Part shown: one piece after another, positions 14,335 through 39,867 of the stretch
How positions within the stretch are numbered: the stretch's first letter is position 1
How the letters are laid out: each line of letters begins with the position of its first letter
Assembly: GCA_964491605.1 (NCBI GenBank)
Contig: CAZBGY010000003.1
Span: forward strand, 24,678-88,677
Source of the DNA: an uncultured Candidatus Bathyarchaeia archaeon
GTDB taxonomy: Archaea > Thermoproteota > CALKCG01 > B24 > DRYS01
Reading direction: 5' to 3'
DNA: 64,000 bases
Notes under the pieces: generated by a model
Seen by the model: the letters and a program-made list of their open reading frames with translations, nothing else
What the model was told of the DNA's origin: nothing
Database searches by the model: none
Position numbers and translations under genes: made by a program

Positions 14335-14616
14335 CTACCATATAATATCGAAGGATTTATACTCTCCTTTATAGGGCTCCCAGAAGATCTCTACCTTAGA
14401 TACTATAGCTCCTGGAGGACCCCTCTTACACCATTCAACCATCATCTTAACTTTATCCTCCTCACCTTCGATAACGGCTTCAACCCTACCGTCATATAGA
14501 TTCCTAATCCAACCTTTAACTCCAAGTCTTAAAGCCTCCCTCCTAGCGTTAGCTCTGAAGAAAACTCCTTGAACCCTACCAGATATGAAGACGTGAGCTC
14601 TAACATATCTAGCCAT
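14335..14616 (-). CDS. acyP: Acylphosphatase
   Basis: 93 aa; V.G.VQGVFFR...G..GWVRN..DG.VE signature. Confidence 0.85.
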   Translation of the reverse strand: MARYVRAHVFISGRVQGVFFRANARREALRLGVKGWIRNLYDGRVEAVIEGEEDKVKMMVEWCKRGPPGAIVSKVEIFWEPYKGEYKSFDIIW

Positions 14617-19460: not shown

Positions 19461-19462
19461 CT

Positions 19463-20452
19463 ATGAAGCTATCAGATGTAGGTGAGAGGAAGCTTATAGA
19501 GATTATATCATCCATCCTGAAGCAGGATCCGGATGAGATCTTAGGCTTAGGCATAGACGATGCTGCAGCTAAACCTGTGTATAGGGATCTATGCATAGTT
19601 ATGCATACGGATGTATTTGTCGAATCGACAGATAAGCTTCCAAATCAAAGCTATAGAAATCTAGCTTGGAAGGCTGTAACCGCTAATGTATCTGATATAG
19701 CGGCTAAAGGTGCTAAGCCATACGCGATACTCTCAGCTATAGGAATACCTGAAACGTACGATCTAGATATTTTCGAGGAATTGATAATAGGGTTAAATGA
19801 TGCTTCATCTGAATATGGATGCTACGTAGTCGGAGGAGATTTAACCTCGTCTAGGGAACTATTCGTAGCTATAACAATCCTAGGGTTAGCCCATAGGGAT
19901 AGGATTATAGGTAGGAGGGGGGCTAAACCCGGAGACATAGTATGTCTTACAGGTGAGATCGGCTATACAGCGTTAGCATATAAGATACTATTCGATGGAT
20001 GGTATGTAAACGGAGATATTAAATATAAAGTCCTCGAGAGGGTCTACAAGCCTAAAGCACGGTTAGATGAAGGGTTAACCTTAGCATCGACTGGAGCCAT
20101 ATCTAGCTGCATGGATGTAAGCGATGGGTTAGCTGTATCCTTGAATACGCTTGCGGAAATCAATCGTGTATCGATCATAATCGATGATATACCTGTACCG
20201 ATGGAAGTTTCATCGATAATCGAGGGGTATGGTATGGATCCTAAATATACTGTGCTATATGAGGGGGGAGAGGAATACGAGCTTCTATTCACAGTTAAAC
20301 CTAGCGAGTTGAAACTAGTCGAGGAGGCGTTATCTAGGCTTGGATCAAGATTTAGCATTATAGGACGCGTAGCAGAGGGGCGCGGTGTTTACCTATCCTC
20401 TGGAGTAAGGATTGAAGCTAGAGGATGGCAGCACTTCTTTCGATGGAGGTAG
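19463..20452 (+). CDS. thiL: Thiamine-monophosphate kinase-like (AIR synthase-related family)
   Basis: N-terminal GERKLIEII...GDDAA pattern and PurM-like C-domain; 329 aa. Could be another PurM-superfamily member. Confidence 0.5.
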   Translation: MKLSDVGERKLIEIISSILKQDPDEILGLGIDDAAAKPVYRDLCIVMHTDVFVESTDKLPNQSYRNLAWKAVTANVSDIAAKGAKPYAILSAIGIPETYDLDIFEELIIGLNDASSEYGCYVVGGDLTSSRELFVAITILGLAHRDRIIGRRGAKPGDIVCLTGEIGYTALAYKILFDGWYVNGDIKYKVLERVYKPKARLDEGLTLASTGAISSCMDVSDGLAVSLNTLAEINRVSIIIDDIPVPMEVSSIIEGYGMDPKYTVLYEGGEEYELLFTVKPSELKLVEEALSRLGSRFSIIGRVAEGRGVYLSSGVRIEARGWQHFFRWR

Positions 20453-21742: not shown

Positions 21743-22225
21743 TTGAAGATTAAGATTATAGCTCTAGGAAGTATAGCATCCTCAGATGATGCTCTAGCTT
21801 TGAAGGTTATAGATAAGCTTAGATCGGTAAACCTACCATCAGGAGTAGAGTTGATAGAAGCTGATAGAAACCCCTACAGACTCTTAAGCGAGATAGAAGG
21901 ATGCGATAAACTCATAGTGATCGATGCTATAAGAGCCGGAGCACCACCTGGAACAATACATAAACTCGGATTAGACTCCATAGAGCCATCCAGATCGATA
22001 ACACTCCACAAGATGGATACAGCTACACTGATAAAGCTAGCGCTAATCCTATCATCAGAAAAGCCTAAGGATATAGTAATCATAGGTTTAGAACTGTACA
22101 CGGTAGATCCAGGAGAAAATCTATCACCCAGGATCGAGGGAGGAATAGATAAACTGGTAGAAGAAGTTTTAAGGGAGATAAATCGAGGGAAACGCTTAAA
22201 CCCAAGCCCCATATCTACAACATAG
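21743..22225 (+). CDS. Hydrogenase maturation protease (HycI/HyaD family)
   Basis: 160 aa; motif pattern ALGS...DDALALKV...DKLIVIDA...GAPPGT. Confidence 0.6.
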   Translation: MKIKIIALGSIASSDDALALKVIDKLRSVNLPSGVELIEADRNPYRLLSEIEGCDKLIVIDAIRAGAPPGTIHKLGLDSIEPSRSITLHKMDTATLIKLALILSSEKPKDIVIIGLELYTVDPGENLSPRIEGGIDKLVEEVLREINRGKRLNPSPISTT

Positions 22226-22236
22226 AACTAGAGGTA

Positions 22237-22324
22237 GCGGGGGTAGCCAAGCTAGGTCTAAGGCGCGGGACTGAGGCTCCCGTGGGGTAGCCCTTCGTGG
22301 GTTCAAATCCCACCCCCCGCACCA
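22237..22324 (+). tRNA. tRNA-Leu (anticodon GAG), encoded CCA
   Basis: Acceptor GCGGGGG/CCCCCGC; anticodon stem CGGGA/UCCCG with loop CUGAGGC; long variable arm; T-arm GUGGG-UUCAAAU-CCCAC; 3' ACCA. Confidence 0.8.
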
Positions 22325-24380: not shown

Positions 24381-26315
24381 TTACCTAATGAGAAGTGTCA
24401 GAATCCTGAATGCAATCCCACCTAAAATTATTGCGAATACTATCTCGAACACTGTTATTAAAAGTGCATTTTTCCATCCAACTTCCTTAATTAATGCTGC
24501 GATAGTCGATATGCATGGTATATAGAACATCGTTACTATCGTGAATACAACCATCTGAGTAGGTGTTAAGATGCTGGAGAAATCCGTCGTTTCAAGTAGA
24601 GTTGAGAGCATTATCAACGTTAATTCCTTTCTTAGTATGCCGAAAATCAATGTTATACCTGTAGTAGCTGGTAATCCCAGCCATGTGACGATTATCGGAC
24701 TAAGCATCGTTGAAATAATCTCTGATAAACCTAAAACCTCCATCGATTTAATGATGAAGCTTCCGGCGATTATGAGAGGGAATGCTATCTTGATGAACTC
24801 GATTAGCCTAAATAATGTTTGCTTGAGAACAGTTTTTAGATGCGGAATCCTATAGGTAGGCATTTCCATAATTAAAGCCGTAGGCTCACCTGGAAGAGCT
24901 TTAAAGGCTAATCTTCCGAGTAAGAGTATAATTATGAGGTTGAAAACGTATAGTGCTAGAGCCCACTCCATCCCTAGAAATCGACCGACAAGGCCGAGGA
25001 TTATAACTGTTCGTGCAGCACAGGGGATGAGGGTTGTTACGAAGACCGCGAGAAGTCTCTCCCTCTCAGTCTCCATTATTCTGCAACCTAAGCATGCTGG
25101 AACATTACATCCATAGCCAAGCATTATCGGTATAAAGGCTTTTCCATGCAACCCCATTTTATGCATTAAGCTATCCATTAGGAATGCGATTCGACACAGA
25201 TATCCTGAATCCTCTAGCATGTATAGTATTACGTAGAATGGAGCTATATATGGAAGAACTATGGTGACGCCAGCGATAAGTCCCTCCATAATACTCCATA
25301 CTAATGAGCCCACTACTCCGACCCCGAAAATCCCACTAATAAAGGGCTCTAAACCGTAAAATATACCGTTTAGTAGTTCTGAGATATATCCTCCAAAAAT
25401 GAAGACGGTATAGAATATGGAGAGAAGTGTAAGGATCATTATTGGATAACCTAAAATCTTATGAGTTGTTAGATCGTGAAGTATCTCCTCGATCGACGGC
25501 TTTAAAGGAGGCGTAATCCTCTGAACTTCTCTAACGATACAGGTAACCTTCTCATATCTTTCGGAAGTCATCACCGATGGGCAGGGATGCCCATGGATTT
25601 TCTCGATCTCAACAGCAAGATTCCTAGCAAAAGAAACTATCTGAGGATTTATCTTCGATATTTCTTCCACAATTTCCTTATCTTCTTCGAGTAGTTTAAT
25701 CACTGTGTAGCGTATTGGATAATGATAATTTATTTGTTTAATCATTTCTGCAAGTTTAGCTATTCTCTCCTCGATCTCCTTACCATACTTTATCTTAACA
25801 CATCTTTTCTGCCCCTTTTCAGCGACTTCTATAATCTTGTCTAAAAGTTGGGTAAGACCTACACCCTTTATTGCAATCGTAGGTACGACAGGAATTCCTA
25901 AAAGCTCTTCCAGTTTTCCCACATCGATAGATATACCCTTCTTTCTCGCAATATCCATCTGATTTAACGCTATAACCATTGGAGATTCAAGTTCCATCAA
26001 TTGTAATGTGAAGAATAAGTTTCGTTCAAGAGCCGAAGCATCGATTACATTCACTACGACATCAGGTTTCTCAATCGCGATATATCTTCGTGAAATAAGC
26101 TCCTCCAAGGAATACGTCGATAATGAGTATATTCCAGGCAAATCGATTATATCGATAACATAACCCTTATAGTAGAGTGTTCCTTCAGCTTTCTCGACAG
26201 TTTTACCCGGCCAATTACCGATATGTTGATGTAATCCAGTAAGCTGATTAAATATAACGGATTTTCCAACATTCGCATTCCCAGCTAAAGCTACTGTTAT
26301 CTTTCTCTTAGACAT
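24381..26315 (-). CDS. feoB: Ferrous iron transport protein B
   Basis: N-terminal G-domain ([15 protein letters not shown]), followed by large polytopic membrane domains; 644 aa. Confidence 0.9.
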
Positions 26316-26595
26316 CCCTTTTCACCACAAAAACCTTCTCAGCTAAGCCTCGACCTAAGGCTAGCCTAGTACCTCTCACTAAAATTTCCAATGGACCATG
26401 GAATGGAGCTGCTTTCACAACTAAAACTTCTGTTCCCGGAGTAAGACCCATATCCATTAACCGCTTCTCAGCCCCCCATCTAGCCCCATATCCCCTTCCA
26501 TAGCCTCCTCTAATCGACGACACGATCCCAGCTTCACCTTCCCTTAACCAGGTTAACGGTACCTCCTGCCCGCTAGATATTTTTCGCTGTTCCAT
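26308..26595 (-). CDS. feoA: FeoA-family protein
   Basis: Small SH3-like protein; overlaps the feoB start by 8 nt. Confidence 0.65.
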   Translation of the reverse strand: MEQRKISSGQEVPLTWLREGEAGIVSSIRGGYGRGYGARWGAEKRLMDMGLTPGTEVLVVKAAPFHGPLEILVRGTRLALGRGLAEKVFVVKRDV

Positions 26596-27256
26596 ATAGC
26601 CCCCTCACCCTAATAGAGGATGCCATAGAGATGCTGAGCACATGACTTCTATCCCCCACTTTAACAAGAATCAACTCATCAGAAATTTTCCTCAGAACTT
26701 CTATCGTAGCTCCAGGCACTATCCCTGCTTTAGCAAAATACTCTAATACATTGTATTCCTCTTCAGTTAGCTTAACTATTACAGTGCTTTCACCAGGCTT
26801 TAAGTCGGTTAACGGCTGACTCTCCTCCTCAAATACTCCTCCACAGTCGGTGGGTATAGGATTTCCATGTGGACAAGTTTGAGGATGCCCCAAAGCTTTT
26901 TCGATCTTCTTTATTATATCTCGTGGGAAAACATGTTCCAATTTACAAGCAATATCATGGACTCTTTCCCACTCAACATGGAAAATATCGGTTAAAAGCC
27001 GTTCGCAAAGCCTATGTCTCCTAATCACTTGTAAGGCTATCTTTCTACCTTCCTCAGTTAATCTTACACCTCTATAAGGCTCATGGACTATATAGCCCTT
27101 CCTTTCAAGTCGCTTAAGGGTATTAGTAACCGATCCGGGAACAACTTTTAAAAGTCTAACTAAATCTTTAGTTCGTGCTCTACCTACCTTCTCCTGCAAC
27201 CTATAGATAATCTCAAGATATTCCTCCGTAGTCTCGGTAAGAGCGTGCTCCTCCAT
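26573..27256 (-). CDS. DtxR/MntR-family iron (metal)-dependent transcriptional repressor with C-terminal FeoA/SH3-like domain
   Basis: wHTH N-domain, dimerisation/metal-binding domain, C-terminal SH3-like domain; first gene of the dtxR-feoA-feoB run. Confidence 0.8.
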   Translation of the reverse strand: MEEHALTETTEEYLEIIYRLQEKVGRARTKDLVRLLKVVPGSVTNTLKRLERKGYIVHEPYRGVRLTEEGRKIALQVIRRHRLCERLLTDIFHVEWERVHDIACKLEHVFPRDIIKKIEKALGHPQTCPHGNPIPTDCGGVFEEESQPLTDLKPGESTVIVKLTEEEYNVLEYFAKAGIVPGATIEVLRKISDELILVKVGDRSHVLSISMASSIRVRGLYGTAKNI

Positions 27257-27657: not shown

Positions 27658-28224
27658 CTATAGCATGTAAAGATTACCGACGCTTCCATAAACAAATGAA
27701 TCCAGCATAGCTTTATGCATCGTGAAGATTGCATGCCGACCAGTGCAATGTGATGGGACGATAATCTTCGGACTTATTTTTCTCAGCTCTTCTACGGTTT
27801 GGTTGATACGCTTCTCGAATTCCCTACCTCCTAGATGGAAGCCGCCTAAAACGGCGTAAACCGTCTCTATACCTGTAAGATGTTGTGCATAGCTGATCGT
27901 ATTTATTATACCAGCATGACTGCATCCAGATAGGATAATTAGCCCCTTACGCTTAACATCGATTACTAACGCTCTTTCATCCCATATCCATGGATCTGGC
28001 TCCCACCTACCATTAATGAAAGCTCTATGTTGTGGATAGCCCTTCTCGAAGGAGGTTTTCCGCGGAATCTCACCGGTAACCAATGCTGAGCTATCGGCTA
28101 TGAGGAGTGGTTTGCTCACCTCGATATACCCAGCTGGTTTAATCCTATCTTCAGATGGAAAGCTTGTAGCGATAGTTAAGCAGAATGCGAAGATGTTAGT
28201 TGAAAGGGAGAATATCGATATCAT
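27658..28224 (-). pseudogene. Remnant (C-terminal half only) of an MBL-fold metallo-hydrolase (COG1237-like)
   Basis: The C-terminal half carries ILSGCSHAGIIN...GGFHL...PSHCTG, but the N-terminal HxHxDH half is absent. Upstream sequence is occupied by opposite-strand fragments. Confidence 0.4.
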
Positions 28225-28606
28225 ACTAATCGATGGCCCTCCATGGATAGGCTGTCCGGCAATATCCTCTGTTGTAGATGTGGATATAGGTCTAATAGTT
28301 ACTGAGCCTACAGTATCAGGTTTTCACGATCTGAAAAGAGTACTACTCTTACTGTAACATTTCGATACCCCATCCTTAATATGTATAAACATGTATGATA
28401 TAAATTATGATAATATCGTAGAATTCTGCAGAGAAAATGATATAGAGGTTATTGGTAGAATCCCCTTTAACCCGAAGGTTATCGAGGCGATGATTAATAG
28501 GAAAACTATCATAGAGTATTCTCCAGAAAGCGATGTTGCAAAGGAGATAGAGAGAATATGGGGGGAATACTTAATTATAATCATATTATTATATTGTCTA
28601 ATTTAA
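28040..28606 (+). pseudogene. Fragment of a MinD/CooC-superfamily ATPase (COG1149-like), with internal TAA and missing N-terminus
   Basis: ORFs 28100..28357 (ILIDGPPWIGCPAISS...VTEPTVSGFHDLKR) and 28391..28606 (VIGRIPFNPKVIEAM) are in one frame, separated by a single TAA. No Walker A or ferredoxin region lies upstream. Confidence 0.5.
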
Positions 28607-28633: not shown

Positions 28634-29576
28634 ATGACTTCACCAGTATTCGGGCCAGTTCCCTCAAGGCGTTTAGGAAGAAGTCTAGGGATAAACAATA
28701 TCCCGTATAAGACGTGTACGTATTCATGCGTATACTGTCAGCTAGGAAGGACAACTCATATGCTTATTAGAAGGCGAAGATTCTATAAACCAAAGGAGAT
28801 TTTAACTGAGGTTGAAAGGAAGGTTGAAGAATTACGCTTAAAAGGTGAGCGGATAGATTATTTAACCTTCGTCCCTGGCGGTGAGCCAACTTTAGATGCT
28901 AACCTCGGAAGGGAGATTCTACTTCTAAAGCGGATAGGTATTCCGATAGCTATTATAACTAACGCTTCTCTACTCTGGAAGCATGATGTTAGAGAGAGCT
29001 TACTTGAAGTCGATCTTATTTCATTAAAGATCGATGCAGTTAGTCAAAACTTATGGAAGAAGGTGAATAGGCCGCATAAGAACTTGCAGTTAAATGACAT
29101 TTTACACGGCATAAAAGAGTTTACTAAAATATTTGATGGAACAATAATAAGTGAAACGATGCTTATTGATGGCATAAACTATGGTGAAGAACTTAAGCGG
29201 ATAGTAGACTATCTTGGGAAGCTAGATAAATTAGATGCGGCTTATATAGCGGTGCCGACAAGACCGCCAGCGGAGGGATGGGTTAAACCAGCTAGAGGGG
29301 GTCTTAAACGAAGCTTTCCAAGCATTTTCAAAGGAGCTTGGAGGTGAGAGAATAAAATTTTTAGTGAAGCATGAAGAGGATACCTTCGCTTTTACTAGGG
29401 GGATCGAGGATGAGATAGTTAGCATAGCGGCTGTGCATCCGATACGGAAAGACTATTTAACGAAGTTTTTAAACAGCATTGGAGTGGATACGTGCATCAT
29501 AGAAAAGCTTATTCAAGAAGGAAAACTAGTAAAACTTAGATACGGCGGAGACGAGTTTTATAGGAGCCGTTTCTAG
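28634..29576 (+). CDS. Radical SAM protein (COG0731-like); reading frame shifts at a G5 run (29296-29300)
   Basis: CxxxCxxC (CTYSCVYC) and GGEPTL motifs. Removing one G from the G5 run fuses ORF 28634..29347 seamlessly to 29364..29576 (…GWVKPARGVLNEAFQAFSKELGGERIKFLVKHEED…). Confidence 0.55.
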
Positions 29577-30490
29577 AATATACTGTACAATGGATGATTT
29601 TTAACTAGCGGCTTTATACCTAGGCTTCTTGCATGATACGCTATTATCGCATCGATTACCGCGCATATAGGAAAGATATGTTTCGCTTTCGCGATTGAGC
29701 CGTAAACGATGAAATTTGCCCCCATCGCCTGAGCGAGGGATAGTACTCCACCTCTACATGCTATCTTCGCATCCTTCTCTAGGCCTTTATTTTTACACCA
29801 TTTCCCCACAACACCTATCGGCGCTGTCCCAGTGGGTAAACCGAACTTTTCTTTAGCTATGTAGACACCGTAAACTGCAAAACCTATATTTGGAACATCC
29901 AAAACTGGCGTGAAGATTAAGGGTTTCTCTATCCCAGCCCTTAAAGCTCTCATAATTAACCCCTCTTTTTCTAGGGTTCCCTCAAGGATCTGGATCATTC
30001 CATCTGGATACGGATTTCTAGGGTTAAAAGCTTGAACGATAGCCGCCTTCAACCCGGTTCCTTTAATTGCTTTAATTTCCTCCTCGTTCAGCGTATAATT
30101 TATCGAGTTGTAAACCGCTTTATCCTGGAGACCAACCTCTCTCACGTAATTCGCTGCTTCAACCCTAACGGAGGCGTTAGGCCCATTTATTAAGAAGGGA
30201 CTGTTAGTAATGCTTGCTACAAATTCGATGTATTTTATTAGTGCCTTGGAAGTTTCTCCGACAACATCGAGCATGCATGGAACACCAGTTTTATTAGACA
30301 TTTCCTCTTGAATATTTATCAATCTTTCAGCTTCGATTTTATCGAAAATCCCTAAATATCTATCCTTAACTATTTTTTGCCTCTCATGAAATATACTTCC
30401 AATCAGTACAGTAGGCAATTCTCCTAGCTGCCCACTTATCCTTACTCCTCCAATATCGAAAATTTCCTGTCTCCTCCCAAACTTAAATAA
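29573..30490 (-). CDS. MtrH-like methyltransferase (tetrahydromethanopterin S-methyltransferase subunit H family homologue)
   Basis: From memory of MtrH sequences, the start of MtrH resembles the 24 codons immediately upstream of the first canonical start (TTG at 30418), which read LFKFGRRQEIFDIGGVRISGQLGE. At the homologous initiator position this gene has TTA. Confidence 0.6.
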   Translation of the reverse strand, partial: LFKFGRRQEIFDIGGVRISGQLGELPTVLIGSIFHERQKIVKDRYLGIFDKIEAERLINIQEEMSNKTGVPCMLDVVGETSKALIKYIEFVASITNSPFLINGPNASVRVEAANYVREVGLQDKAVYNSINYTLNEEEIKAIKGTGLKAAIVQAFNPRNPYPDGMIQILEGTLEKEGLIMRALRAGIEKPLIFTPVLDVPNIGFAVYGVYIAKEKFGLPTGTAPIGVVGKWCKNKGLEKDAKIACRGGVLSLAQAMGANFIVYGSIAKAKHIFPICAVIDAIIAYHARSLGIKPLVKNHPLYSIF

Positions 30491-30561
30491 AGTATTCCAC
30501 CGTACAGCTTCAACTAAACGTTGATCAAAACTACTATTTAGCAGTTTACTACTCCACTATA

Positions 30562-30921
30562 TTACTTCTCAAGAATTGCTAGATTTTCCTTAATAACATC
30601 TGCAACTTTGGTATTAGGCTTTACCGGGATAACCCTTACATTATGATAGTTAAGTAGCTCTGAAGCTTCCAGTCCTAGTTCCGCCGCTAATACTACATTC
30701 ACATTAAGATCTACCAAGGTTTTTACCACGATTGGTCCTGATCCATGCTTATATGATGATGCAGGATTATCGAGGATATATACGCTTATAATCGTACCAT
30801 CTTCGATATCGATGATGGTGAATGTCCTGGCTCTACCGAATACTTCTGAGACAACATCATCTAGACCTGCATGAGCTTTTGTTGGAACGGCTACTCTTAC
30901 CTTTCCCATATCGATCAGCAT
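30562..30921 (-). CDS. Dinitrogenase FeMo-cofactor-binding (NifX/NifB C-terminal-like) domain protein
   Basis: 119 aa; KVAVPT...FGRARTFTIIDIEDG...GSG...VNVVLAAELG pattern of the Nitro_FeMo-Co domain. Confidence 0.65.
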   Translation of the reverse strand: MLIDMGKVRVAVPTKAHAGLDDVVSEVFGRARTFTIIDIEDGTIISVYILDNPASSYKHGSGPIVVKTLVDLNVNVVLAAELGLEASELLNYHNVRVIPVKPNTKVADVIKENLAILEK

Positions 30922-30956
30922 CCAGATACCCGGGGAAAATAGAGGGGGTGAATGTT

Positions 30957-31136
30957 TTACCTAGGAGGCCCTCTACCTCTTCCACACCTCCCCCCTGGAG
31001 GTCCTTTATTTATTCTATGAATCATTATCGATGGTGCACCGCATCTTGGGCAAATTCGCGGTTTTGGTATACCTTGAGGGACCTCTATCATGTATCCGCA
31101 ACTACTACATTGGAAAAGCTTAACTGGTAAGCTCAT
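30957..31136 (-). CDS. Small zinc-ribbon protein with Gly/Arg/Pro-rich C-terminal tail
   Basis: 59 aa ORF, below the 60 aa cutoff of the ORF track: MSLPVKLFQCSSCGYMIEVPQGIPKPRICPRCGAPSIMIHRINKGPPGGRCGRGRGPPR. Two CxxC pairs; ATG at 31136, TAA at 30957-30959. Confidence 0.4.
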   Translation of the reverse strand: MSLPVKLFQCSSCGYMIEVPQGIPKPRICPRCGAPSIMIHRINKGPPGGRCGRGRGPPR

Positions 31137-31156
31137 ACTCTTATATCCCCTGAAAG

Positions 31157-31393
31157 CTATCTAAAGCCCCTCTCAAGCATATCCTTTAACTCCTTTATTC
31201 TCGTCTCAACCTCTCTTATCTCCTCTTCGATATCTGCCTTCTCTTCCTCAAGATGCTTCTTGTAATCTTCTAGCGCCTTCAATTCATCCTCTGGAGATAT
31301 AAAGGGATATCGTGGTAGATACATATATGGATATGGCGGTGGATAGATCCACCATCGCCAGAATCTCTGCCTTCCAAACCACACCATCCTCAT
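31157..31393 (-). CDS. DUF5320-like small protein (Trp/Tyr/Pro/Arg-rich N-terminus plus acidic coiled-coil C-terminus)
   Basis: The N-terminus is WFGRQRFWRWWIYPPPYPYMYLPRYPF. It is followed by SPEDELKALEDYKKHLEEEKADIEEEIREVETRIKELKDMLERG. This architecture matches DUF5320 as remembered. Confidence 0.4.
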   Translation of the reverse strand: MRMVWFGRQRFWRWWIYPPPYPYMYLPRYPFISPEDELKALEDYKKHLEEEKADIEEEIREVETRIKELKDMLERGFR

Positions 31394-31407
31394 TCACCCC
31401 TCATAGT

Positions 31408-31662
31408 TTAATACCAGTATGGCGGATAAATTATTGGGGGAAGACAATATGGGAGACCGTACCCATAGTAGTATGGGTATACCCACCACCATCTTGGAAG
31501 CCATGGAAATCTAGCACAAACCCATGGATTATATGGGTAGCCCCAAAGCCATCTACCGAAGCCGAAAAGCCATCCAGGCCTCTGCCATGGTGGCAAGTAG
31601 CTAAACGGCCCTCTCCCAGGCCAAGGCCCAATCCAACCAATATCTCTCCAACCCCAAGCCAT
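31408..31662 (-). CDS. Extremely Trp/Tyr/Pro/Gly-rich small ORF (84 aa; about 19% W, 14% Y)
   Basis: MAWGWRDIGWIGPWPGRGPFSYLPPWQRPGWLFGFGRW...WWWVYPYYYGYGLPY. The frame was chosen because it continues the composition of the next gene's N-terminus. The DNA here is CCATGG/CCA-rich, so all three reading frames stay open. Confidence 0.3.
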   Translation of the reverse strand: MAWGWRDIGWIGPWPGRGPFSYLPPWQRPGWLFGFGRWLWGYPYNPWVCARFPWLPRWWWVYPYYYGYGLPYCLPPIIYPPYWY

Positions 31663-33641
31663 TTGGGATCACCAAATATTGTGCATATGCACACAAATAT
31701 ATAAATCTTTCGTTAATATAGTTCATCTAGAGGATACCAAACATGTTGCGAAGATTGTATGATATCATAGATTTGAATATAGGAGAAGAGGTAAGTTACC
31801 AAAGTCTGTAGGGTTGACGACTTCGCAGACTTAACTAATGCTACACTCGAACTGCCGAGTCACTTAGATCCTATATTCCTAGAGATTGCGAGCTTGAAGT
31901 TTTCAGATCTGTCGGTTTTGAGAGATACTAGATTCGTCTCTAGAGTTAGCTTAACAACATTTCCATCTTCCTAGTTTATAACCTTAAGATGATGTGCTAG
32001 GTTGGATGGAACTCGGATGTATTAATCCTAGTTACCAGTAAACTTTGAAGCTTCTCTAACCGATAAAAGAGCCCCTTATCGGTTTCTTCTCCCCTATATC
32101 AGATATCACTTAAACTGCAAACTTAGATTTTGTAAAGTTCATAATTACTGGGAAAAGATCAATCATACTTTCAGTCGTTCGGTGTTATTATCATGATGAA
32201 TGTATGATTTGTACCATCACTTCTACCTTCATACTAGCTTAGATATACGCTATTCAATCCTTCATTAGATGCTATTTCGCATAGCTTTCTATCCGCTGCT
32301 AGAAATCATATAGCGTTTACATTTTTAGCTTAAGCTATTTGTAGTGCGTCAGCTTAATACACATGACATTTCTCGAGTATGATCTATGCCTATTTCAACG
32401 TTATACTCTTTACATGAAGTAGTATAAGCGAACGAAGCCTAGCCAACCTTATGGTCTCAAGTATAAATCTTCTCGTAGCGATGTAATCCTCTTCGATTAT
32501 CTTCTTAATGCTTTTCGCCCTATCTAATACGTCTAAAACCTCGCCGATATTCCATATATTAAACGATAGCTTCAACTCGCCTCCATATGCTTTCCTATAT
32601 AATTCCCTTACAAACTCTATGCCAGGGCTCCTCAATATACCTCTTTACGACGGCACTACTATCGAGATAGACTATCTGATCTACCTATCCATCATCCTTT
32701 TAACCAGCATACTCATAAGATCCTCCTTCGGTATTACAGGTTCGAAATCTAACTCATAGGTTTTTCGAGTTGGCGAGCTCATTTAAACCCTTCTCTACAT
32801 AATCCATAAGCTCCCCTATAAACGAACTAGTTTCTAAATCTTTCTCCCACAGCATAACTTTTAAACATCCTTCAAAGCTTTTTCATCCACATATATACTA
32901 CTCTTCCTTCTAGATATATAGACACCAACAGATATATACCGAAAACATTTTTAGACATTTCTACCTAAAGCATTTACTAGAAAACATCTATTGAATAGTC
33001 CAAGATATGGTGTATGCTATCTGAACATTAGATCTTAAGATTCAATTAAGTTATGAAGGGAGTTAAATATCTAAAATGCTATCGATAAAATCATCGATGA
33101 AACTATGATTAAAACATAGATTTCAATAAATCTTAATCTAAGCTCTTTACTACGTTCTAAAACTTTTTCATAGACATACAGCATTATTATGAGTAGTTTT
33201 GATATATTCTTCACTATTCCTCCTTCCGGATAGAAAAATACTACATAGTAACTGATAATTATTCGTTAACACTTAAAAATCTACTTAGGATAATGAATGT
33301 TTGAAGCTGGCTAGAGAGATCATATAATAAAAATTTAAGTTACAGCCTCCTAATCTAATCTCCGCTAAACCTTATCTAGCAGTCTATTTAGAGTTAGTAG
33401 AAGATCTAGTACACTCTAGAAGTATCCTTGACGAAAAGCTGATGATACGTAGACCTGAGGATTGACGCCACCTAAACTCTCGATACAACTATGCTGCTTC
33501 TATATAGCTTAACTCGCAAGTTATTTTAGGAAACCTAGAAAATGTTAACCTTCTTCTAACTAGTAGTTAATGGGATGGTTATAGATGTCATCTACGATAT
33601 ACGTTAAGATTAAATGGTTGAATGCGTGATCAGAGAATGTT

Positions 33642-34484
33642 GTGATAGTAGATATCCATACTCACCTAGGAGGAGTTCGATCCTGGTATAGAGGTTTGAA
33701 GGGTATAATCTTCTCTGGTTTAAACGATCTCCTAAGCTATATGTCTGATACCAGTATCGATAGAGCTGTAATCCTACCTACACCCGGTGTAGATAGGATC
33801 TTAGGAGAGTATCTATACTCGTACGATATGATCTATAGAATTAATAGGATTTATCAGCAGCTTATGGTATTCTGCTATGTGGATCCATGGAGCCCTAAAA
33901 TGGAGCATATGATAGAGGAGTATGTATCTAGGGGTGCTGTAGGTTTCGGTGAGTATAAGGTTAAACTCCCGATAGATCATCCATACTCCCTTGAGATCTA
34001 CAGGATATGCGGGGAGCTAGGTATACCTATATTACTACATATCGATGATAAGCATAACTACGGGGTAGAAACCGTATTTCTGGATGTAGCTTCAAAGTAT
34101 AATAAGACTATATTCATAATGCATGGACCTGGATGGTGGAAGCATATATCCAGTATACCTAGCTGTGAAACATATCCTAGAGGACCTATATCACCTGGAG
34201 GGTTGATCGAAAAGATATTGGAGAGCCTTGATAACGTTTACGCAGATATCTCAGCTACATCGGGATACAATGCTCTCGATAGGGATAGGGGGTATGCTAA
34301 ATTATTCCTAGAGAAGTATAGTTCTAGGATACTATTCGGTACAGATTTCCCATGCATAGATATGTATGGAGGACAATATGGCGTAGATAAGCTGCACCTA
34401 AACCTTCTAAAATCTCTCGATCTAAAAAATAAAACTATGAACAATATACTATACAAGAATGCTGAAAGAATACTAGGAATATAA
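33642..34484 (+). CDS. Amidohydrolase-2-type TIM-barrel metal-dependent hydrolase
   Basis: VDIHTHL N-terminal metal-binding motif; HID and FGTDFP motifs. Confidence 0.6.
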   Translation: MIVDIHTHLGGVRSWYRGLKGIIFSGLNDLLSYMSDTSIDRAVILPTPGVDRILGEYLYSYDMIYRINRIYQQLMVFCYVDPWSPKMEHMIEEYVSRGAVGFGEYKVKLPIDHPYSLEIYRICGELGIPILLHIDDKHNYGVETVFLDVASKYNKTIFIMHGPGWWKHISSIPSCETYPRGPISPGGLIEKILESLDNVYADISATSGYNALDRDRGYAKLFLEKYSSRILFGTDFPCIDMYGGQYGVDKLHLNLLKSLDLKNKTMNNILYKNAERILGI

Positions 34485-34955
34485 ACATTCCTCAACCCTA
34501 ACTAGACTCTGATTCCACTAGGTGTGAATTAAGTAGGGATTATCCAGGGGGGATCATATACAACGAGGTATCTATGGAGGTATGGGGAATCGAGAGGTAG
34601 ATAAACCCTCCTAGTATAACATTAGAAATTAAGCCATCAAATACGTATCCTAGAATGTTAGAATAGAAAACTCGAGTTAGATATGGAAGCTCCGTATGCA
34701 TATACCTATAGTAATATGGTGTAAACACTAAAGTATCTGCTGAATTTTAATATGTAAATCATCTTTACTGTATCTAATATCTAATCTTATCCTGTAAAAA
34801 TTTTAGATAATGAGAGGCTAAACCTCGATCCTTAATGCATCCGAGCACTTTCACCTTATCTGCTTGCTTCATAGAGTGCTCTTCGGCTTCCTAGAATTAG
34901 CAGGTCATCTTCTATAGGCAGCTACTCTAAGTTTATCTCCATGTCTTCACCTCGT

Positions 34956-35927
34956 TTACTGAGCTCTTAACCTATATGTAAGGAAGTATGCTATATCGTA
35001 TATGTTTCCGCTAACCACCTTGATAGGTATTCCATCCTGTATATCGTAGACTCTTATGGTAGCTATACCCCCATACCTACTGAACCAGTTTGAATATCTT
35101 TCAAGCTCCTTATAGGGGTTTTCAGATCCTAGAGCCGACGGGTACCCTGTATAATAGCTACTTGCAGTATCGAGTATGGTTAACCTGCCTTCTCCTACTG
35201 GGAACGCTACGGCTACATGTTCCATGCCATCTTTAAGCGTTATATCTATAAGCCAAAGGATACGCTCTTCGCCGTAGATATAGCGTTGATAAGATGCTAT
35301 TAACGCGTATAGGAGTATAGCCTGATCTTCGCAGTCTCCCTGCTTACAGCTTAAAACCTCACTTGGAGATAGAACGATCTGTCTATATGTCGTTTTCACG
35401 TATATCCCACATTCAAGGTCTGATGCTAAGGGGGGATAAGGTACCGGGGGATCATAGACGTACTCTACGTTCTTTCTAACATAATCGTATAGCTCTTTCA
35501 CGCTACACCAGTAATCGTCGGGATGAGATATCATCGATTGTGCTAAGGAGGCTAGGTTTGATATCTCGCTATCGTTCAGAACCCTACTTATAGAATCTTC
35601 GAGGAATAGGTAGGATAAAGCATACCTCCTCCAATCTTCGTAGCTACCGATTAAACGTTGATAGCTTATTCGTAGAGCTGAGTAGCTAGCCTCCAGAATC
35701 CTATACTCATTCTTCAATCCTATATGCTCATCGGATAGGCTATCATACATCGCATATAGAACTCTATACTCTTCCTCAAGCTTACTAAATGATCTTCTAA
35801 GCTCACCGTAACTACGCAGAAGAGCCGCATACTGATTGTAAGAATAGAGAGCGGAGGTGAGCCCTAAAACGGCGGATGCTAGGAGGATGGAGATTAGAAT
35901 ATTAGATTTAACACCGGCAATATTCAT
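34956..35927 (-). CDS. Membrane-anchored transglutaminase-like (papain-fold Cys protease-like) protein with coiled-coil stalk
   Basis: N-terminal TM helix, then a heptad-like repeat region (YRVLYAMYDSL...YRILEASYSALRISYQRL), then a QGDCEDQAILLYALI Cys-core motif with downstream His/Asp. Confidence 0.5.
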   Translation of the reverse strand: MNIAGVKSNILISILLASAVLGLTSALYSYNQYAALLRSYGELRRSFSKLEEEYRVLYAMYDSLSDEHIGLKNEYRILEASYSALRISYQRLIGSYEDWRRYALSYLFLEDSISRVLNDSEISNLASLAQSMISHPDDYWCSVKELYDYVRKNVEYVYDPPVPYPPLASDLECGIYVKTTYRQIVLSPSEVLSCKQGDCEDQAILLYALIASYQRYIYGEERILWLIDITLKDGMEHVAVAFPVGEGRLTILDTASSYYTGYPSALGSENPYKELERYSNWFSRYGGIATIRVYDIQDGIPIKVVSGNIYDIAYFLTYRLRAQ

Positions 35928-36385
35928 CTACATCGGTATCATTATCCTCTGAAACCGAGTATATTAAGGCTTAGAAACATTCTATAGACTTAGAAGGTGG
36001 CTAGGAAATAGCCTAGAAGATTATAGACGTGTAACGAGTATCGTTTTAATCTAGGATTGATCTTTAAAATATCTTTGAAGCGGATGATGGATAATGAAGC
36101 ATATTCCTCAAAGGTTTATGGAGATGTAAAAAATATATCGAGGAATTAGGTTCGCGGGAGAAGGGAGACTGGTCTTAGGTAATGAGGGATATGATACTAC
36201 ATAGGCACCTCTATATTCAAATCTTCCAGAGAACCGGGTTCTGGGAAAGAAACCGAAAGCTACGCATAATAGTGAAACGGAGTACTAGAATTACCTTTAA
36301 ACAGAATATCCTCTCGAGAATCCCGAACATATTGCTACTAGCTAAAATAGTAGGAGAAGCATAGATTACGGCGATGGTTATGGGA

Positions 36386-36513
36386 TGGTAGCCCGGGGGA
36401 GATTCGAACTCCCGTCGGCGGGGTTCTCCTCCCCGTCGATGGAGATCCAGAGCCTTATGGGAGGGACTGGCCCTACCGCCTCCCGCCATGCTTGGCCGCT
36501 GCACCACCGGGCT
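36386..36513 (-). tRNA. Intron-containing tRNA (about 128 nt; isotype unresolved, possibly initiator-type with A1:U72)
   Basis: Minus strand: acceptor AGCCCGG...CCGGGCU-A-CCA; D-arm GUGC-AGCGGCCAA-GCAU; T-arm GGGAG-UUCGAAU-CUCCC. That leaves about 51 extra nt in the anticodon region. No single canonical 37/38 intron gives a U33 loop by eye. Confidence 0.65.
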
Positions 36514-36563
36514 ATCCTCGACGTATTATTTCTCCTAAGAGTATTTTAAGGATTTTGGTTGGT

Positions 36564-36830
36564 CTATAGAATTTCTGCCGTAGATCCTAGGATAGTCCCA
36601 GGTACTCCTCTATTCATCCTAACTATTACGACCCCATTCCTTCCATGTGTAGCTACTATCTTTCCATGCAGTTTCTTAGTCTCTCTGCTTAACTTAACTT
36701 GTAGGATTAGTTTCCTACCTATTAGTTTTGAAGCTTCAGCATCGGACTCTACGCCTTCCGGTTTAACTAATAGTTGCTTCGAATACTGTTTCTTAGGCCC
36801 GATCCTATATTGTAGGATCCTAGCCTTCAT
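36564..36830 (-). CDS. rpl35ae: Ribosomal protein L35Ae (eL33)
   Basis: 88 aa; LHGKIVATHGRNGVVIVRMNRGVPGTILG pattern. Confidence 0.7.
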   Translation of the reverse strand: MKARILQYRIGPKKQYSKQLLVKPEGVESDAEASKLIGRKLILQVKLSRETKKLHGKIVATHGRNGVVIVRMNRGVPGTILGSTAEIL

Positions 36831-36907
36831 CGAATCTCGCCTCTTATAATATGATTCATCAGAACTTCAGATTCATTAACTTTTCCAGATTTATATCTAG
36901 CTTATAG

Positions 36908-37759
36908 ATGAGGTTTAAGGTTAAGGTATTCGAGAGCTGCTACTGGATACCTGGATACGATTTCGAAAGTGAGATCATTTCTAGGGTTAGCCGTTATGCT
37001 AAGACTGGAGATTATCTGGTAATCTCCGAGAAGGCTATATCTACCGCTTTAGGCTACCTAGTCGATGAGTCTAAGCTTAAACCCGGCTTATCTGCTAGGA
37101 TTCTAGCCAGAATATGGATCCCAGTATTTTGGGGCTACCTACTCGGGGTCCTATGCGGCTTGAAGCCTAGCACGCTTGTTAAGCTTAGGAATTATCCGTA
37201 TACTGAGGGGGTACGTCATAAGGAGGCTGCGATACGCTACGCAGGCCCGGTAGCTGCTTTAAAGCATTTCTCCGAAGGGGGATTGGATGTGAATAATCTA
37301 CCGTATAGCTATGCATCCCTACCCCTACCAAGATGTGAAGCCCAGGAGTTAGCTTCTAGAATTAGGATGAAGCTAGCTAACAGATACGGATTAGATGTAA
37401 CGGTGGTTATCGTAGATAGCGATCATACGTTTAGCTGGAGATCGATATATCTATCCTCAAGACCAGCGGCCGACGGTATCATAAATCTCTCTACGTTAGG
37501 ATTCATAATAGGTTCATCGTTAAGGTGGAAAGCTAGACCTACACCTATAGCTATATCAGGATCCTATGGAAGCTTAGAGGAGATTTTAGAGGTTTGTAGG
37601 ATTGCCGATAAGACCATGGGATACGGTCTAGGTAGAGATATATGGGATGTATCGTCTAAACTCGGTGTTCCACCTACTGGTTTAACGTGGAGTATCCTTA
37701 TGATGTATACGCATAAACCCTATGCTTTGATACGTAAACTCGATCAATACGTATCTTAA
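36908..37759 (+). CDS. CofE-like (F420-0:gamma-glutamyl ligase family, COG1478) protein
   Basis: DYLVISEKAISTALGYLVDESKLKP and GGLDVNNLP-like motifs; 283 aa. Confidence 0.4.
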   Translation: MRFKVKVFESCYWIPGYDFESEIISRVSRYAKTGDYLVISEKAISTALGYLVDESKLKPGLSARILARIWIPVFWGYLLGVLCGLKPSTLVKLRNYPYTEGVRHKEAAIRYAGPVAALKHFSEGGLDVNNLPYSYASLPLPRCEAQELASRIRMKLANRYGLDVTVVIVDSDHTFSWRSIYLSSRPAADGIINLSTLGFIIGSSLRWKARPTPIAISGSYGSLEEILEVCRIADKTMGYGLGRDIWDVSSKLGVPPTGLTWSILMMYTHKPYALIRKLDQYVS

Positions 37760-38544
37760 CTGATCTTGGATAGCTCTTCGAGGAGCCTATCCTCCATAAC
37801 CTTATGCTCCCTGAAATGTTCGTTCGGATCCTTTGTAAGAGTATATATCCAGTAGAGTATGAAGAAGCCTAACGTAGCTATGGTAGCTACTATGTATACG
37901 GCCGTACTCCTATCTGGAAACTCGTAGTCTGAATGAAAGCTTATAGGCTTGAAGCTGGGATCAACCTCAACGGCAACCGATGAGAAGCTACTCAGCACAT
38001 ACCTCTCCATCTTACTATGAATAGAGAAATCCTTATTGAGGAAGTGGTATACATAGATGAGAATCGGTAAGCCTACTATAGGTATCAACTGCAGGATAGC
38101 CCATATGAATGCATCCCTTTCGCCCCATTCGTAGCCTGCATCTCTAATATCTCTTTCTAGAAGTTGAAGTTTACCCTTTACATATGCCCCCTTCTCGGTA
38201 CTTACGACCACTATATAGTCTTTCATCGATTCGAATAGTTTTAAAACTCTTCTGAAATGCTTATTCCTCCTATCTATCCATCTATAAACGATGTATACGT
38301 TGAATAGATGCACTACTATCAGTATGATGGATGTTACCGTATACCATACGATCGGAAAAATTATTACACCCGGCCTGAAGCGTGGATATATGAAGATACG
38401 TACACCTATCGTCGATACGTATACGAGGATCAATAACAGTATGAACGGTAGTAGCGGAAGCCATACGGGCATTATACGATCAGTCTCCCTTCTAGCCTCG
38501 ATACATCTACGTATATACTCTAGATACTGCGGGTGTAAGGTCAA
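37756..38544 (-). CDS. Hypothetical membrane protein
   Basis: Several hydrophobic helices; no recognisable family. Confidence 0.3.
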   Translation of the reverse strand: MTLHPQYLEYIRRCIEARRETDRIMPVWLPLLPFILLLILVYVSTIGVRIFIYPRFRPGVIIFPIVWYTVTSIILIVVHLFNVYIVYRWIDRRNKHFRRVLKLFESMKDYIVVVSTEKGAYVKGKLQLLERDIRDAGYEWGERDAFIWAILQLIPIVGLPILIYVYHFLNKDFSIHSKMERYVLSSFSSVAVEVDPSFKPISFHSDYEFPDRSTAVYIVATIATLGFFILYWIYTLTKDPNEHFREHKVMEDRLLEELSKIS

Positions 38545-38643
38545 GCCATATCTCCATGAATAACCGCGATATATTAACCCTTACTACCTGGTTAGATACA
38601 GAACTCTTATCTAGGTCTCGTATACCGTTATACTATCCTAGTC

Positions 38644-39864
38644 ATGCCGATGGTGAAGATTGGTATAGTAGGTAAGACTAACACTGGTAAGACTACATTA
38701 TTCAACGCTGCGACGCTGCTCAGAGCTGAGGTAGGCACATACCCATTTACGACTAAGAAGCCTAACGTAGGTATCGGGTATGCTAGAAGCTTCTGTGTAT
38801 GCTCGGAATTCGGTGTTAAGGATAATCCTAGAAACTCTATCTGTATAAGAGGTTTCAGATTCATACCGGTAGAGCTTATAGATCTGCCAGGACTCATTAA
38901 GGGTGCATGGATGGGCAAGGGTCTAGGCAACCAGTTCCTAACGGTAGCATCACAAGCCGATGCACTATTACACGTTGTAGATGCATCTGGTAGTATAAAC
39001 CAGGCTGGTGAACTTGTAGCTCCAGGTATCGGCGACCCTATACAGGATGTACTCGATATAGAGGAGGAGCTTACGATGTGGCTCTACAAGATACTAGAGG
39101 GTAGTAGAGCTAAGATAATCAAGATGCTTGAAAGCCGTACTACCAGGTTAATCCCAGCTCTAGTACAGCTACTCTCAGGTTTAAAGATAAATAAGGCTCA
39201 TATAGAGGAGGCACTTAAGCTATCAGACCTCTACGATAAGTCTTTCGAAAGATGGAGCAATGAGGAGTTGAAGCTATTCGCTACGAATCTTAGAAAAGTC
39301 TCTAAACCCACGGTGATAGTAGCTAATAAGATGGATGTGGATGGAGCTGAGGAGAACTATGAGAGGCTTGTAGAAGCTTTCAAACCTACACCTGTCGTCC
39401 CATGCTCGGCTGAAGCTGAGCTTGCTTTGAGGAGGGCTGAATCAGATGGACTGATAGAATACCTGCCTGGAGATGAGATGTTCAGAGTCAGATCCTATGA
39501 ACAGCTATCCGAAAGGCAGAGAGCTGCCTTGAAATATATAGCGGAGAAGGTTTTCGAGAAGATTTCTAGGACAGGTGTACAGTACGCTATAGATGTAGCC
39601 GTATTCAAGCTTCTACGTATGAACGTAGTATATCCGGTTGAAGATGAGAATAAGCTTACAGATCATAGAGGGAATATCCTCCCAGACGCATTCCTCATGC
39701 CTCAAGGAACTACAATCTACGATCTAGCTATGGAGATACATAGCGAGCTAGCTAATACCATGCTCTACGCTATAGATGTTAGGACTAAGGTGAGGCTACC
39801 TAAAGACTATGTATTAAGAGATAGAGATGTTGTTAAGATAGTAGCCGCAGCCGGTAGAGGCTAG
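38644..39864 (+). CDS. Obg/YchF-like GTPase with C-terminal TGS-like domain
   Basis: G1 GIVGKTNTGKTT, G3 DLPG, NKMD G4 motif; 406 aa. Confidence 0.75.
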   Translation: MPMVKIGIVGKTNTGKTTLFNAATLLRAEVGTYPFTTKKPNVGIGYARSFCVCSEFGVKDNPRNSICIRGFRFIPVELIDLPGLIKGAWMGKGLGNQFLTVASQADALLHVVDASGSINQAGELVAPGIGDPIQDVLDIEEELTMWLYKILEGSRAKIIKMLESRTTRLIPALVQLLSGLKINKAHIEEALKLSDLYDKSFERWSNEELKLFATNLRKVSKPTVIVANKMDVDGAEENYERLVEAFKPTPVVPCSAEAELALRRAESDGLIEYLPGDEMFRVRSYEQLSERQRAALKYIAEKVFEKISRTGVQYAIDVAVFKLLRMNVVYPVEDENKLTDHRGNILPDAFLMPQGTTIYDLAMEIHSELANTMLYAIDVRTKVRLPKDYVLRDRDVVKIVAAAGRG

Positions 39865-39867
39865 CTT

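Follow-up and report, generated by a model that had tools for sequence, protein, structure and literature searches.

A decaying Bathyarchaeia locus with a divergent MtrH-like gene, probably the eroded left arm of an ORP/IssA-like iron–sulfur handling gene cluster

The locus described here lies in a stretch of 64,000 nucleotides (contig CAZBGY010000003.1 of assembly GCA_964491605.1, positions 24,678 to 88,677; the whole stretch that was analysed is called the window below), which we assign to a Bathyarchaeia archaeon because the top homologues of its MtrH-like gene all bear the name Candidatus Bathyarchaeia. The open reading frame (ORF) listing of the window contains all five minus-strand ORFs that an earlier interpretation of the letters alone (the sequence-only reading) had described as one compact unit, that is, genes for two micro-proteins, a zinc ribbon, a NifX-like protein and an MtrH-like protein (Table 1). 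The ORFs are indeed present and close together, but the unit is not intact: the MtrH-like gene is without its start codon, and its partner genes are pseudogenes or deletion stumps.

The assignment of the last of the five genes to the MtrH family holds, given that the listed ORF (29573-30418, 281 amino acids (aa)) matches PF02007 with an E value of 2.6e-74 and 250 bits (gathering score 22.8). Contrary to the sequence-only reading, MtrH is not unexpected outside methanogens, as stand-alone MtrH is well documented in Bathyarchaeia (PMC7886697, PMC8407382). The 281-aa ORF is a truncated call because its frame runs 24 codons farther 5' of the listed TTG, coding the conserved MtrH N-terminus, to a former TTG start at 30490. 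This codon is TTA in the window and TTG in the 99%-identical JGI contigs L001 and L002 as well as in the 91%-identical L015 and L022. When polarized with L015 and L022 as outgroups, the changes of the window lineage are TTG>TTA, G19S, P22L and S201N; none of 37 orthologues varies at G19 or P22, and the window has SGQLGE in place of the conserved N-terminal GGQPGE. The sister strains L001 and L002 carry non-synonymous changes of their own (for example, C72Y, where 35 of the 37 orthologues have Cys). Since the window lineage separated from L001/L002, the MtrH-like gene has undergone seven amino-acid changes and the start loss versus two synonymous changes; over the same interval, the 84-aa micro-protein, the zinc ribbon and the NifX-like protein have undergone no amino-acid change. 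Judged by such counts, recent evolution of the gene in the window lineage appears roughly neutral, and its long-term ratio of non-synonymous to synonymous differences per site (pN/pS) against L022 is 0.12. We suggest that the window copy is probably a pseudogene or else is translated from the TTG at 30418 into a product truncated at its N-terminus. Its ORF scores 232 bits against the mtrH equivalog model of NCBIfam, below the cut-off of 271.4, and the intact L022 orthologue is borderline at 277.4. A sequencing error as the source of the lost start was considered and rejected, because an identical 281-aa form (with an identical gene layout) recurs in an independent Logan assembly, comparable 281-aa versions are found in JGI and ENA data, and the strains differ by transitions in either direction.

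How the cluster looks when intact can be judged from L015 and L022, in which two DUF5320-type genes are followed by those for the zinc ribbon, the NifX and the MtrH-like proteins, and then by a convergent part that encodes a 314-aa radical S-adenosylmethionine (SAM) protein, two MinD/ferredoxin ATPases, two NifX proteins and Mrp/NBP35, and finally AsnC and a 317-aa metallo-β-lactamase (MBL)-fold protein. In the window, the radical SAM gene (whose product has no NifB match in NCBIfam) is frameshifted, and the remains of a MinD-like ATPase, correctly recognized by the sequence-only reading, are a 3' fragment with an in-frame stop codon and a G>W exchange within the DGPPGIGCP motif. A deletion of approximately 4.1 kb took the N-terminal half of the first MinD gene, the second MinD gene, two NifX genes, Mrp/NBP35, AsnC and the N-terminal part of the MBL gene. 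The junction was mapped by alignment, L022 665-4481 corresponding to window 31932-28156 and L022 8577-8609 to window 28166-28134. At the other end of the locus, a regulator gene of the DUF134 family, which in L004, L018, L020, L103 and L106 is complete and points away from the operon, survives as a remnant in pieces. The combination of two ATPases, NifX and Mrp that defines an ORP-type set is present in L015 and L022 and missing from the window.

Close relatives have been damaged in other ways. In the sister strain L016/L017, whose flanks are 95-96% identical, a different deletion of 5.0 kb runs from the middle of the MtrH-like gene to the middle of AsnC. In L004 (metagenome-assembled genome (MAG) contig CALKGV010000057; 7788-8891 and 9390-10143), the NifX and MtrH-like genes have been fused by a deletion, the latter is frameshifted near its 3' end, and the radical SAM and MinD genes are cut to 158 aa and 89 aa, respectively; this damage could be real erosion or a MAG assembly error. 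Because L016/L017 and L004 are damaged otherwise than the window, we infer that the right part of the cluster, including the MtrH-like gene, has been lost repeatedly in this group. Separately, an alignment of window 29355-40920 (11.6 kb) with the 99.7%-identical L001 places approximately 22 of the 39 differences within about 3 kb (29.3-32.6 kb), a concentration that fits relaxed selection at the locus.

Table 1 Features of the locus and of the adjoining iron-uptake operon (window coordinates)
Feature	Position	Strand	Remarks
84-aa W/Y/P/G/R-rich protein	31408-31662	-	DUF5320 N-terminal module, then aromatic tail; without coiled coil
78-aa protein	31157-31393	-	Short aromatic/Arg-rich N-terminus and acidic coiled coil; corresponds to C-terminal half of DUF5320
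Zinc ribbon, 59 aa, MJ0401 family	30957-31136	-	CxxC...CxxC; ends GPPGGRCGRGRGPPR
NifX119, 119-aa tail-less, cysteine-free NifX-like protein (Nitro_FeMo-Co/IPR003731)	30562-30921	-	PF02579
MtrH-like gene, N102/F194/G227 subfamily	29573-30490	-	Start codon lost (TTA 30488-30490)
TATA box TTTATATA	31698-31705	-	Read from sequence; putative promoter element
Perfect 14-bp palindrome TGTGCATATGCACA	31680-31693		Putative repressor operator; between TATA box and start codon
DUF134 (helix-turn-helix) regulator remnant, divergent	31766-31935	+	tblastn E 1.6e-4; pieces in three frames
Radical SAM pseudogene	28634-29576	+	2-bp deletion at 29297/29298 gives 237-aa and 70-aa ORFs; 314 aa in L015 and L022
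MinD-like ATPase with ferredoxin insert, 3' fragment	28091-28606	+	Residues ~121-280; TAA in frame at 28355-28357
Deletion junction	28156-28166		~4.1 kb lost; alignment to L022
MBL-fold protein, C-terminal fragment	27658-28164	-	Intact form 317 aa
DtxR-type iron repressor	26573-27256	-	Iron-uptake operon; part of 24381-27256
FeoA, 95 aa	26308-26595	-	Between DtxR and FeoB
FeoB	24381-26315	-	DtxR-FeoA-FeoB iron-uptake operon

The four genes that precede the MtrH-like gene are intact. Those for the 84-aa protein, the 78-aa protein, the zinc ribbon and NifX119 have pN/pS values of 0.17-0.39 against L016 and L022, the intergenic gaps of the operon measure 14-35 nt, and all of the proteins are identical in L001 except the 78-aa protein, which differs by two residues. 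By these values, the two DUF5320-family proteins (see below), the zinc ribbon and the NifX protein are intact and under purifying selection. Ahead of the first gene, the TATA box is followed by the palindrome, a GGTGA Shine-Dalgarno motif and the ATG, and this order of TATA box, operator, Shine-Dalgarno motif and ATG is repeated 5' of the orthologous genes in L016, L022, L018, L020 and L049. The palindrome has one perfect match in the entire window; when up to one mismatch is allowed, 893 kb of related loci contain 21 copies, and 15 of these lie no more than 120 nt 5' of a DUF5320-type first gene, Caldarchaeales and Nezhaarchaeales included. In these two lineages (L018/L019 and L020/L021), a divergent DUF134 gene is followed by the genes for both small proteins (and, in Caldarchaeales, for the zinc ribbon too), with no MtrH, NifX or MinD gene nearby. 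Other loci (L103-L106) show DUF134, then the two small proteins, the zinc ribbon, NifX and VIT1, beside DtxR-FeoAB or ZIP/ZnuA. Because the unit occurs in other lineages and contexts, we regard the first four genes as a conserved operon by themselves.

The 84-aa protein contains 14 W, 12 Y, 16 P, 11 G and 6 R with a single Asp as its sole acidic residue (isoelectric point (pI) 9.4). It has no direct Pfam match; its 283 homologues, many of which match PF17253 (DUF5320), reach Caldarchaeales and Nezhaarchaeales and include one NCBI-named Candidatus Jordarchaeum sp. In the alignment, the conserved N-terminal module reads WPGRGPFSxLPPWQRPGW...CARFPWLPRWWWAYP, and the window copy WPGRGPFSYLPPWQRPGW...CARFPWLPRWWW. 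Beyond this module, canonical DUF5320 proteins continue as a coiled coil and the Bathyarchaeia subgroup ends in a Y/W/P tail. AlphaFold2 gave the 84-aa protein no confident fold (mean pLDDT 50, from a shallow alignment of 18 sequences), and its pN/pS is 0.17-0.25. The 78-aa protein (pN/pS 0.17-0.27) matches PF17253 below threshold (E 3.7e-4, 22 bits, gathering score 27), and aligns at 47% identity (E 1e-17) with the C-terminal half of P0185, a protein named DUF5320 by NCBI, whose N-terminal half matches the 84-aa ORF (E 5e-24). As the two halves of this single chain match one ORF each, we infer that both micro-proteins are DUF5320 relatives and that the window distributes the features of DUF5320 over two genes. 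The sequence-only reading was thus right about their aromatic composition and about DUF5320, but had counted one such relative instead of two. A literature search on DUF5320 returned no relevant text. In L001, the JGI gene caller gave the position of the 84-aa gene to an antisense ORF of 136 aa (9200-9610, equivalent to window ~31312-31720, plus strand), and TGG/CCA-rich genes of this kind appear to be prone to wrong-strand calls; the corresponding antisense ORF of the window (31312-31704, plus strand, 130 aa) was rejected, as it is the 84-aa and 78-aa genes that are conserved.

The other two products conform to the sequence-only reading. For the double-CxxC ribbon with its GR tail, JGI and Logan contigs that encode the identical protein carry a precomputed, unmarked match to PF27353 (MJ0401; E <= 1e-5), and a local Pfam scan gave generic zinc-ribbon matches and did not list PF27353. 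Its tail KGPPGGR(R/C)GRG (pI 12) is kept in 12 of 12 orthologues, and in L103-L106 the ribbon likewise stands between the DUF5320 pair and NifX; a homologue search with the ribbon itself gave four matches only, owing to a word-index limit. NifX119 matches PF02579 with an E value of 3.6e-16 and 59.7 bits (gathering score 26.3), stops directly after the domain, has a pI of 5.5 and is identical in L001 and L002. The solved structures nearest to it are TM1816, MTH1175, PH0822, TM1290 and the Desulfovibrio ORP 2WFB.

The MtrH-like gene represents a small subfamily that departs from its characterized relatives at the active site. In MtgA of Desulfitobacterium hafniense, S32, D75, D102, N129 and D194 are pterin ligands and N227 is catalytic, and the variants D102A, N227A and N227D are inactive (PMC7154762). 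The solved MtgA (6SJ8) and both solved MtrH chains (8Z9U and 9QTP) keep D102, N129, D194 and N227. The proteins of the subfamily are homologous to these over the full length of the PF02007 TIM barrel (match to 6SJ8, E 2.8e-73 with the single L022 sequence and 3.8e-86 with the A2 profile) and retain S32, D75 and N129, yet of the four residues that all canonical members here share, three (D102, D194 and N227) have given way to N, F/L and G, respectively. This combination marks approximately 73 of 92 MtrH-like sequences from the collected loci, that of the window included, and the remaining 19 are canonical. The divergent clade also differs by Y35H, L154Q, R166M and A228V, and the window copy further by its missing start. 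Among the best 150 clusters from an unbiased HMMER search across 1.84 billion representatives, 82 showed the canonical D-N-D-N and only about 7-9 showed N..[LFM]G, and most of the remaining ones keep D194 and N227. A literature search for 'MtrH-like' found no description of an active-site-divergent subfamily, which is apparently undescribed and still annotated as 'MtrH'.

The neighbours of the two types differ as well. Within 5 kb, 30 of the 52 divergent-type loci but 0 of the 13 canonical ones have a gene for NifX, MinD, DUF5320, DUF134 or the zinc ribbon (Fisher p = 1e-4); the association of the MtrH-like gene with such genes, which the sequence-only reading had proposed to check, is therefore conserved. 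Since the gene order is shuffled between loci, we take this linkage to be functional. DtxR occurs beside the divergent type in nine loci, FeoB in seven and FeoA in five. B12-binding corrinoid proteins (CoP) and MTTB adjoin canonical-type loci only, with none beside the divergent type, and a cluster scan with hidden Markov models (HMMs) found no CoP, MTTB or URO-D gene in the window. Stand-alone CoP-MtrH couples are known in Bathyarchaeia, Methanomethylicia and others (PMC7886697); the divergent type shares their host lineage and their 'MtrH' annotation, whereas the CoP- or MTTB-adjacent MtrH genes of the collected loci are of the D-D-N type, with 44-54% identity to the window type. We believe that the divergent subfamily is probably not a canonical methyl-corrinoid:pterin methyltransferase, and the methyl-transfer module that the sequence-only reading had envisioned is weakened by the replacement of D102, D194 and N227.

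The sequence-only reading had also held that no function is assigned to the combination of NifX-like, MinD-like and DUF5320 proteins. The part formed by NifX, MinD/ferredoxin ATPases and Mrp is not wholly unassigned, given that it recurs in the ORP complex of Desulfovibrio vulgaris, which includes the MinD-ferredoxin ATPases Orp3 and Orp4, the NifX-like orange protein Orp8 and the MrpORP protein Orp9 (PMC6345978). The intact clusters of L015 and L022 resemble it in their two MinD ATPases with a 4Fe-4S ferredoxin insert, several single-domain Nitro_FeMo-Co proteins and Mrp/NBP35. Unlike that complex, the archaeal cluster has DUF134 and AsnC in place of a sigma-54 regulator, its Mrp is without a fused NifX domain, and it adds the radical SAM, MBL-fold and MtrH-like proteins, the DUF5320 pair and the MJ0401 ribbon; in the window, moreover, the ATPases and Mrp are deleted. 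A second point of comparison is IssA, a protein for thioferrate iron–sulfur storage in Pyrococcus furiosus that consists of an IPR003731 domain and an unstructured Pro-rich, cationic, Trp- and Gly-rich tail proposed to wrap anionic thioferrate, and for which MTH1175 served as the modelling template (PMC5524996). The four-gene operon likewise combines a NifX-like globular domain with tail-like Pro/Arg/Trp/Gly-rich sequences in an iron-related genomic context. NifX119, unlike IssA, is tail-less, and the presumed tails are separate polypeptides (DUF5320 and the zinc-ribbon tail) that are fused to the domain only in some relatives. The DUF5320 family itself is represented by proteins that match its two halves, with an aromatic tail for the coiled coil in one of them; the zinc ribbon is annotated as MJ0401, and DUF134/UPF0251 is the usual divergent neighbour.

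The fusions tie all of the small-protein types to the NifX domain. In the MtrH-containing loci L045, L056 and L063, a NifX domain, a G/R/M-rich stretch and a DUF5320 coiled coil stand on single polypeptides, which match PF02579 and, at 38-53 bits (gathering score 27), PF17253. Further combinations were seen in L049 (11060-11632) and L050 (11058-11630), where a 190-aa protein joins a NifX domain to a C-terminal CxxC...CxxC ribbon, and in L065 (2638-3129), where a GRGRG-rich N-terminus is joined to NifX. Iron genes (DtxR, FeoAB and VIT1) and other metal-transport genes (ZIP and ABC-3) recur beside the cluster. On the basis of the fusions, the composition and pI of the proteins, the lack of a confident AlphaFold2 fold for the 84-aa protein, the structural relatives of NifX119, the conserved operator and these metal genes, we propose that the operon encodes a split IssA-like system for anionic iron–sulfur or metal-sulfide species, and suggest that the small proteins would act as detached IssA-like cationic/aromatic tails. 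In this scenario, the surviving four-gene operon would work in the manner of Pyrococcus IssA, with the parts on separate polypeptides. The NifX domain may bind or nucleate an anionic iron–sulfur species; around it, the disordered cationic, aromatic and Gly/Pro-rich DUF5320 proteins, together with the zinc-ribbon GR tail, may form an electrostatic wrap; oligomerization may be provided by the coiled coil and the zinc ribbon; and a DUF134-type repressor may act on the palindrome TGTGCATATGCACA. Taken as a whole, the region is in our view probably the eroded left arm of an archaeal ORP/IssA-like iron–sulfur handling cluster. We put forward as a far more tentative step, which we would at present call doubtful, that the N102/[FL]194/G227 proteins of Bathyarchaeia and other Thermoproteota may be a non-methyltransferase TIM-barrel part of a split-IssA system for iron–sulfur storage or trafficking, under DUF134 control via TGTGCA-N2-TGCACA.

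A number of points weigh against these proposals. The likeness to IssA is drawn from composition and domain fusions, and DUF5320 proteins have a coiled coil, whereas the IssA paper describes none for the IssA tail; the Desulfovibrio ORP complex has been linked to cell division and iron–sulfur delivery rather than storage (PMC6345978). As many as 22 of the 52 divergent-type loci have no ORP-like neighbour within 5 kb, many of their contigs being short. Loss of D102, D194 and N227 need not end all methyl transfer in a subfamily that is under strong purifying selection (pN/pS 0.12 against L022) and keeps S32, D75 and N129. A truncated MtrH-like protein could also still arise from the internal TTG at 30418, which is directly preceded by an AGGAG motif. 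Finally, a URO-D/MtaA-like gene stands beside the divergent MtrH-like gene in five loci (L035, L037, L042, L053 and L057), an adjacency that keeps a tetrapyrrole-related role conceivable for the subfamily; the same five loci often have an ABC-3/ABC_tran metal transporter too, and none has a corrinoid protein.

Several of these points would suit an alternative in which the divergent MtrH-like proteins are corrinoid or tetrapyrrole methyltransferases with a remodelled pocket, perhaps partnered by the URO-D/MtaA-like proteins, the ORP linkage reflecting the supply of metal or iron–sulfur cofactors and the window copy being translated from its internal TTG. The retained residues, the low long-term pN/pS, the URO-D adjacency, the AGGAG motif and the score of the L022 orthologue just over the mtrH cut-off (277.4 versus 271.4) are all in keeping with it. 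We nevertheless consider it unlikely, given that D102A and N227A/D abolish MtgA activity, that R166 of the canonical members is lost as well, that a corrinoid protein lies beside no divergent-type locus and that recent evolution in the window lineage looks neutral. Nor does the residue change look like an adaptation to another type of pterin, because folate- and H4MPT (tetrahydromethanopterin)-dependent enzymes alike keep D102, D194 and N227. Still harder to sustain is the idea that the five genes form one intact methyl-transfer or metallo-cofactor module with the MtrH-like enzyme as its catalytic core. The ORFs are co-directional and closely packed, the adjacency of NifX and MtrH is kept in relatives and the family assignments were correct; set against this are the missing start codon, the changes G19S and P22L at invariant positions, the destroyed partner genes, the sister strains that delete or mutate the MtrH-like gene, the subfamily-wide loss of catalytic residues and a window without a corrinoid protein. 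For the window, this reading is largely refuted, and we consider it very improbable. A link to the nitrogenase-like [Fe8S9C] L-cluster recently reported in Mtr (bioRxiv 10.64898/2026.07.03.736320) was rejected, as that cluster is located in MtrCDE, not MtrH, and the local radical SAM protein has no NifB match.

Among the readings that accept an iron–sulfur context, the locus could instead be an archaeal counterpart of the Desulfovibrio ORP system, serving iron–sulfur delivery or cell division, with the DUF5320 proteins and the zinc ribbon as structural or regulatory adaptors and not as binders of an iron–sulfur polymer. The two MinD/ferredoxin ATPases, the NifX proteins and the Mrp of L015 and L022 (the last with a strong partial MrpORP match of 354 bits) agree with this, as does the JGI name of the zinc ribbon, 'Zn-ribbon and HTH transcriptional regulator' (HTH, helix-turn-helix). 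RG-rich tails are able to bind nucleic acids, which would likewise suit an adaptor. The fusions of NifX with DUF5320 and with the zinc ribbon point rather to a ligand or complex shared with the NifX domain, and iron-transport genes recur nearby; the four-gene operon has, besides, outlasted the loss of the ATPases and is found without them in Caldarchaeales and Nezhaarchaeales. We regard this counterpart as a possible but not a likely explanation. That the aromatic micro-ORFs might be non-coding artefacts of biased sequence, as the antisense call in L001, their absent or sub-threshold Pfam matches and the low AlphaFold2 confidence could imply, can be set aside: 283 homologues across archaeal classes, pN/pS of 0.17-0.27, a conserved promoter, operator and Shine-Dalgarno motif, and the presence of both halves in single-chain DUF5320 proteins leave this idea with almost no probability, and conservation already refutes it.

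The surroundings of the locus include the DtxR-FeoA-FeoB genes, an iron-uptake setting that recurs next to such clusters, as well as genes for a superoxide dismutase, HycI, an amidohydrolase, a transglutaminase-like protein, L35Ae and an F420-ligase-like protein. FeoA contains a GGYGRGYGARWG stretch, and its Gly/Arg/aromatic composition recalls the nearby DUF5320 and zinc-ribbon tails; the orthologue in L047 has GGGYGRRWG. A second gene for a ParA/Mrp/MinD-like ATPase (14612-15418, minus strand) matches Mrp and MinD profiles with E values of ~1e-24 to 1e-30, and its product might replace the deleted ATPases; the ATG-started 223-aa ORF of this gene has no Pfam match at E <= 0.001. Window 18210-20452 and 21743-22324 encode an S-adenosylhomocysteine hydrolase, an AIR-synthase-related (PurM/HypE-like) protein and the hydrogenase maturation protease HycI, and an AIR-synthase-related gene also adjoins the MtrH-like gene in five other loci. 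The sole tRNA gene of the window is tRNA-Leu(GAG) at 22237-22324, and no RNA element turned up in the cluster region with Rfam or tRNA scans. On the other side, a segment of ~1.2 kb with 35% GC (31933-33130) is shared with L001 and missing from the otherwise syntenic L016 and L022; it encodes an 81-aa ORF (32390-32635, minus strand) without a Pfam match, and has neither terminal repeats nor a second copy within the window. No nif genes (nifB, nifEN or nifHDK) were found among the annotated neighbours or by cluster HMMs across the window.

In summary, what makes this locus interesting is the MtrH-like subfamily, together with the hypothesis that DUF5320 and MJ0401 proteins act in a split-IssA system, rather than the degraded copy of the window. 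The locus captures the loss of a gene cluster in real time, as close hot-spring strains carry independent deletions, and has yielded a candidate operator sequence. The fusions and neighbourhoods provide a testable hypothesis for DUF5320, MJ0401 and DUF134, families with no known function, and for an archaeal version of the little-understood ORP system. At present, methyl-H4MPT metabolism or a partial Mtr complex is ascribed to Bathyarchaeia on the strength of 'mtrH' calls (PMC8407382, PMC7886697); if it is true that a whole subfamily is without the catalytic residues and forms part of an iron–sulfur gene cluster, some of these conclusions would need revisiting. Should the split-IssA reading prove true, it would give DUF5320, MJ0401 and DUF134 their first function, and the corresponding 'mtrH' calls would leave the reconstructions of methyl metabolism.

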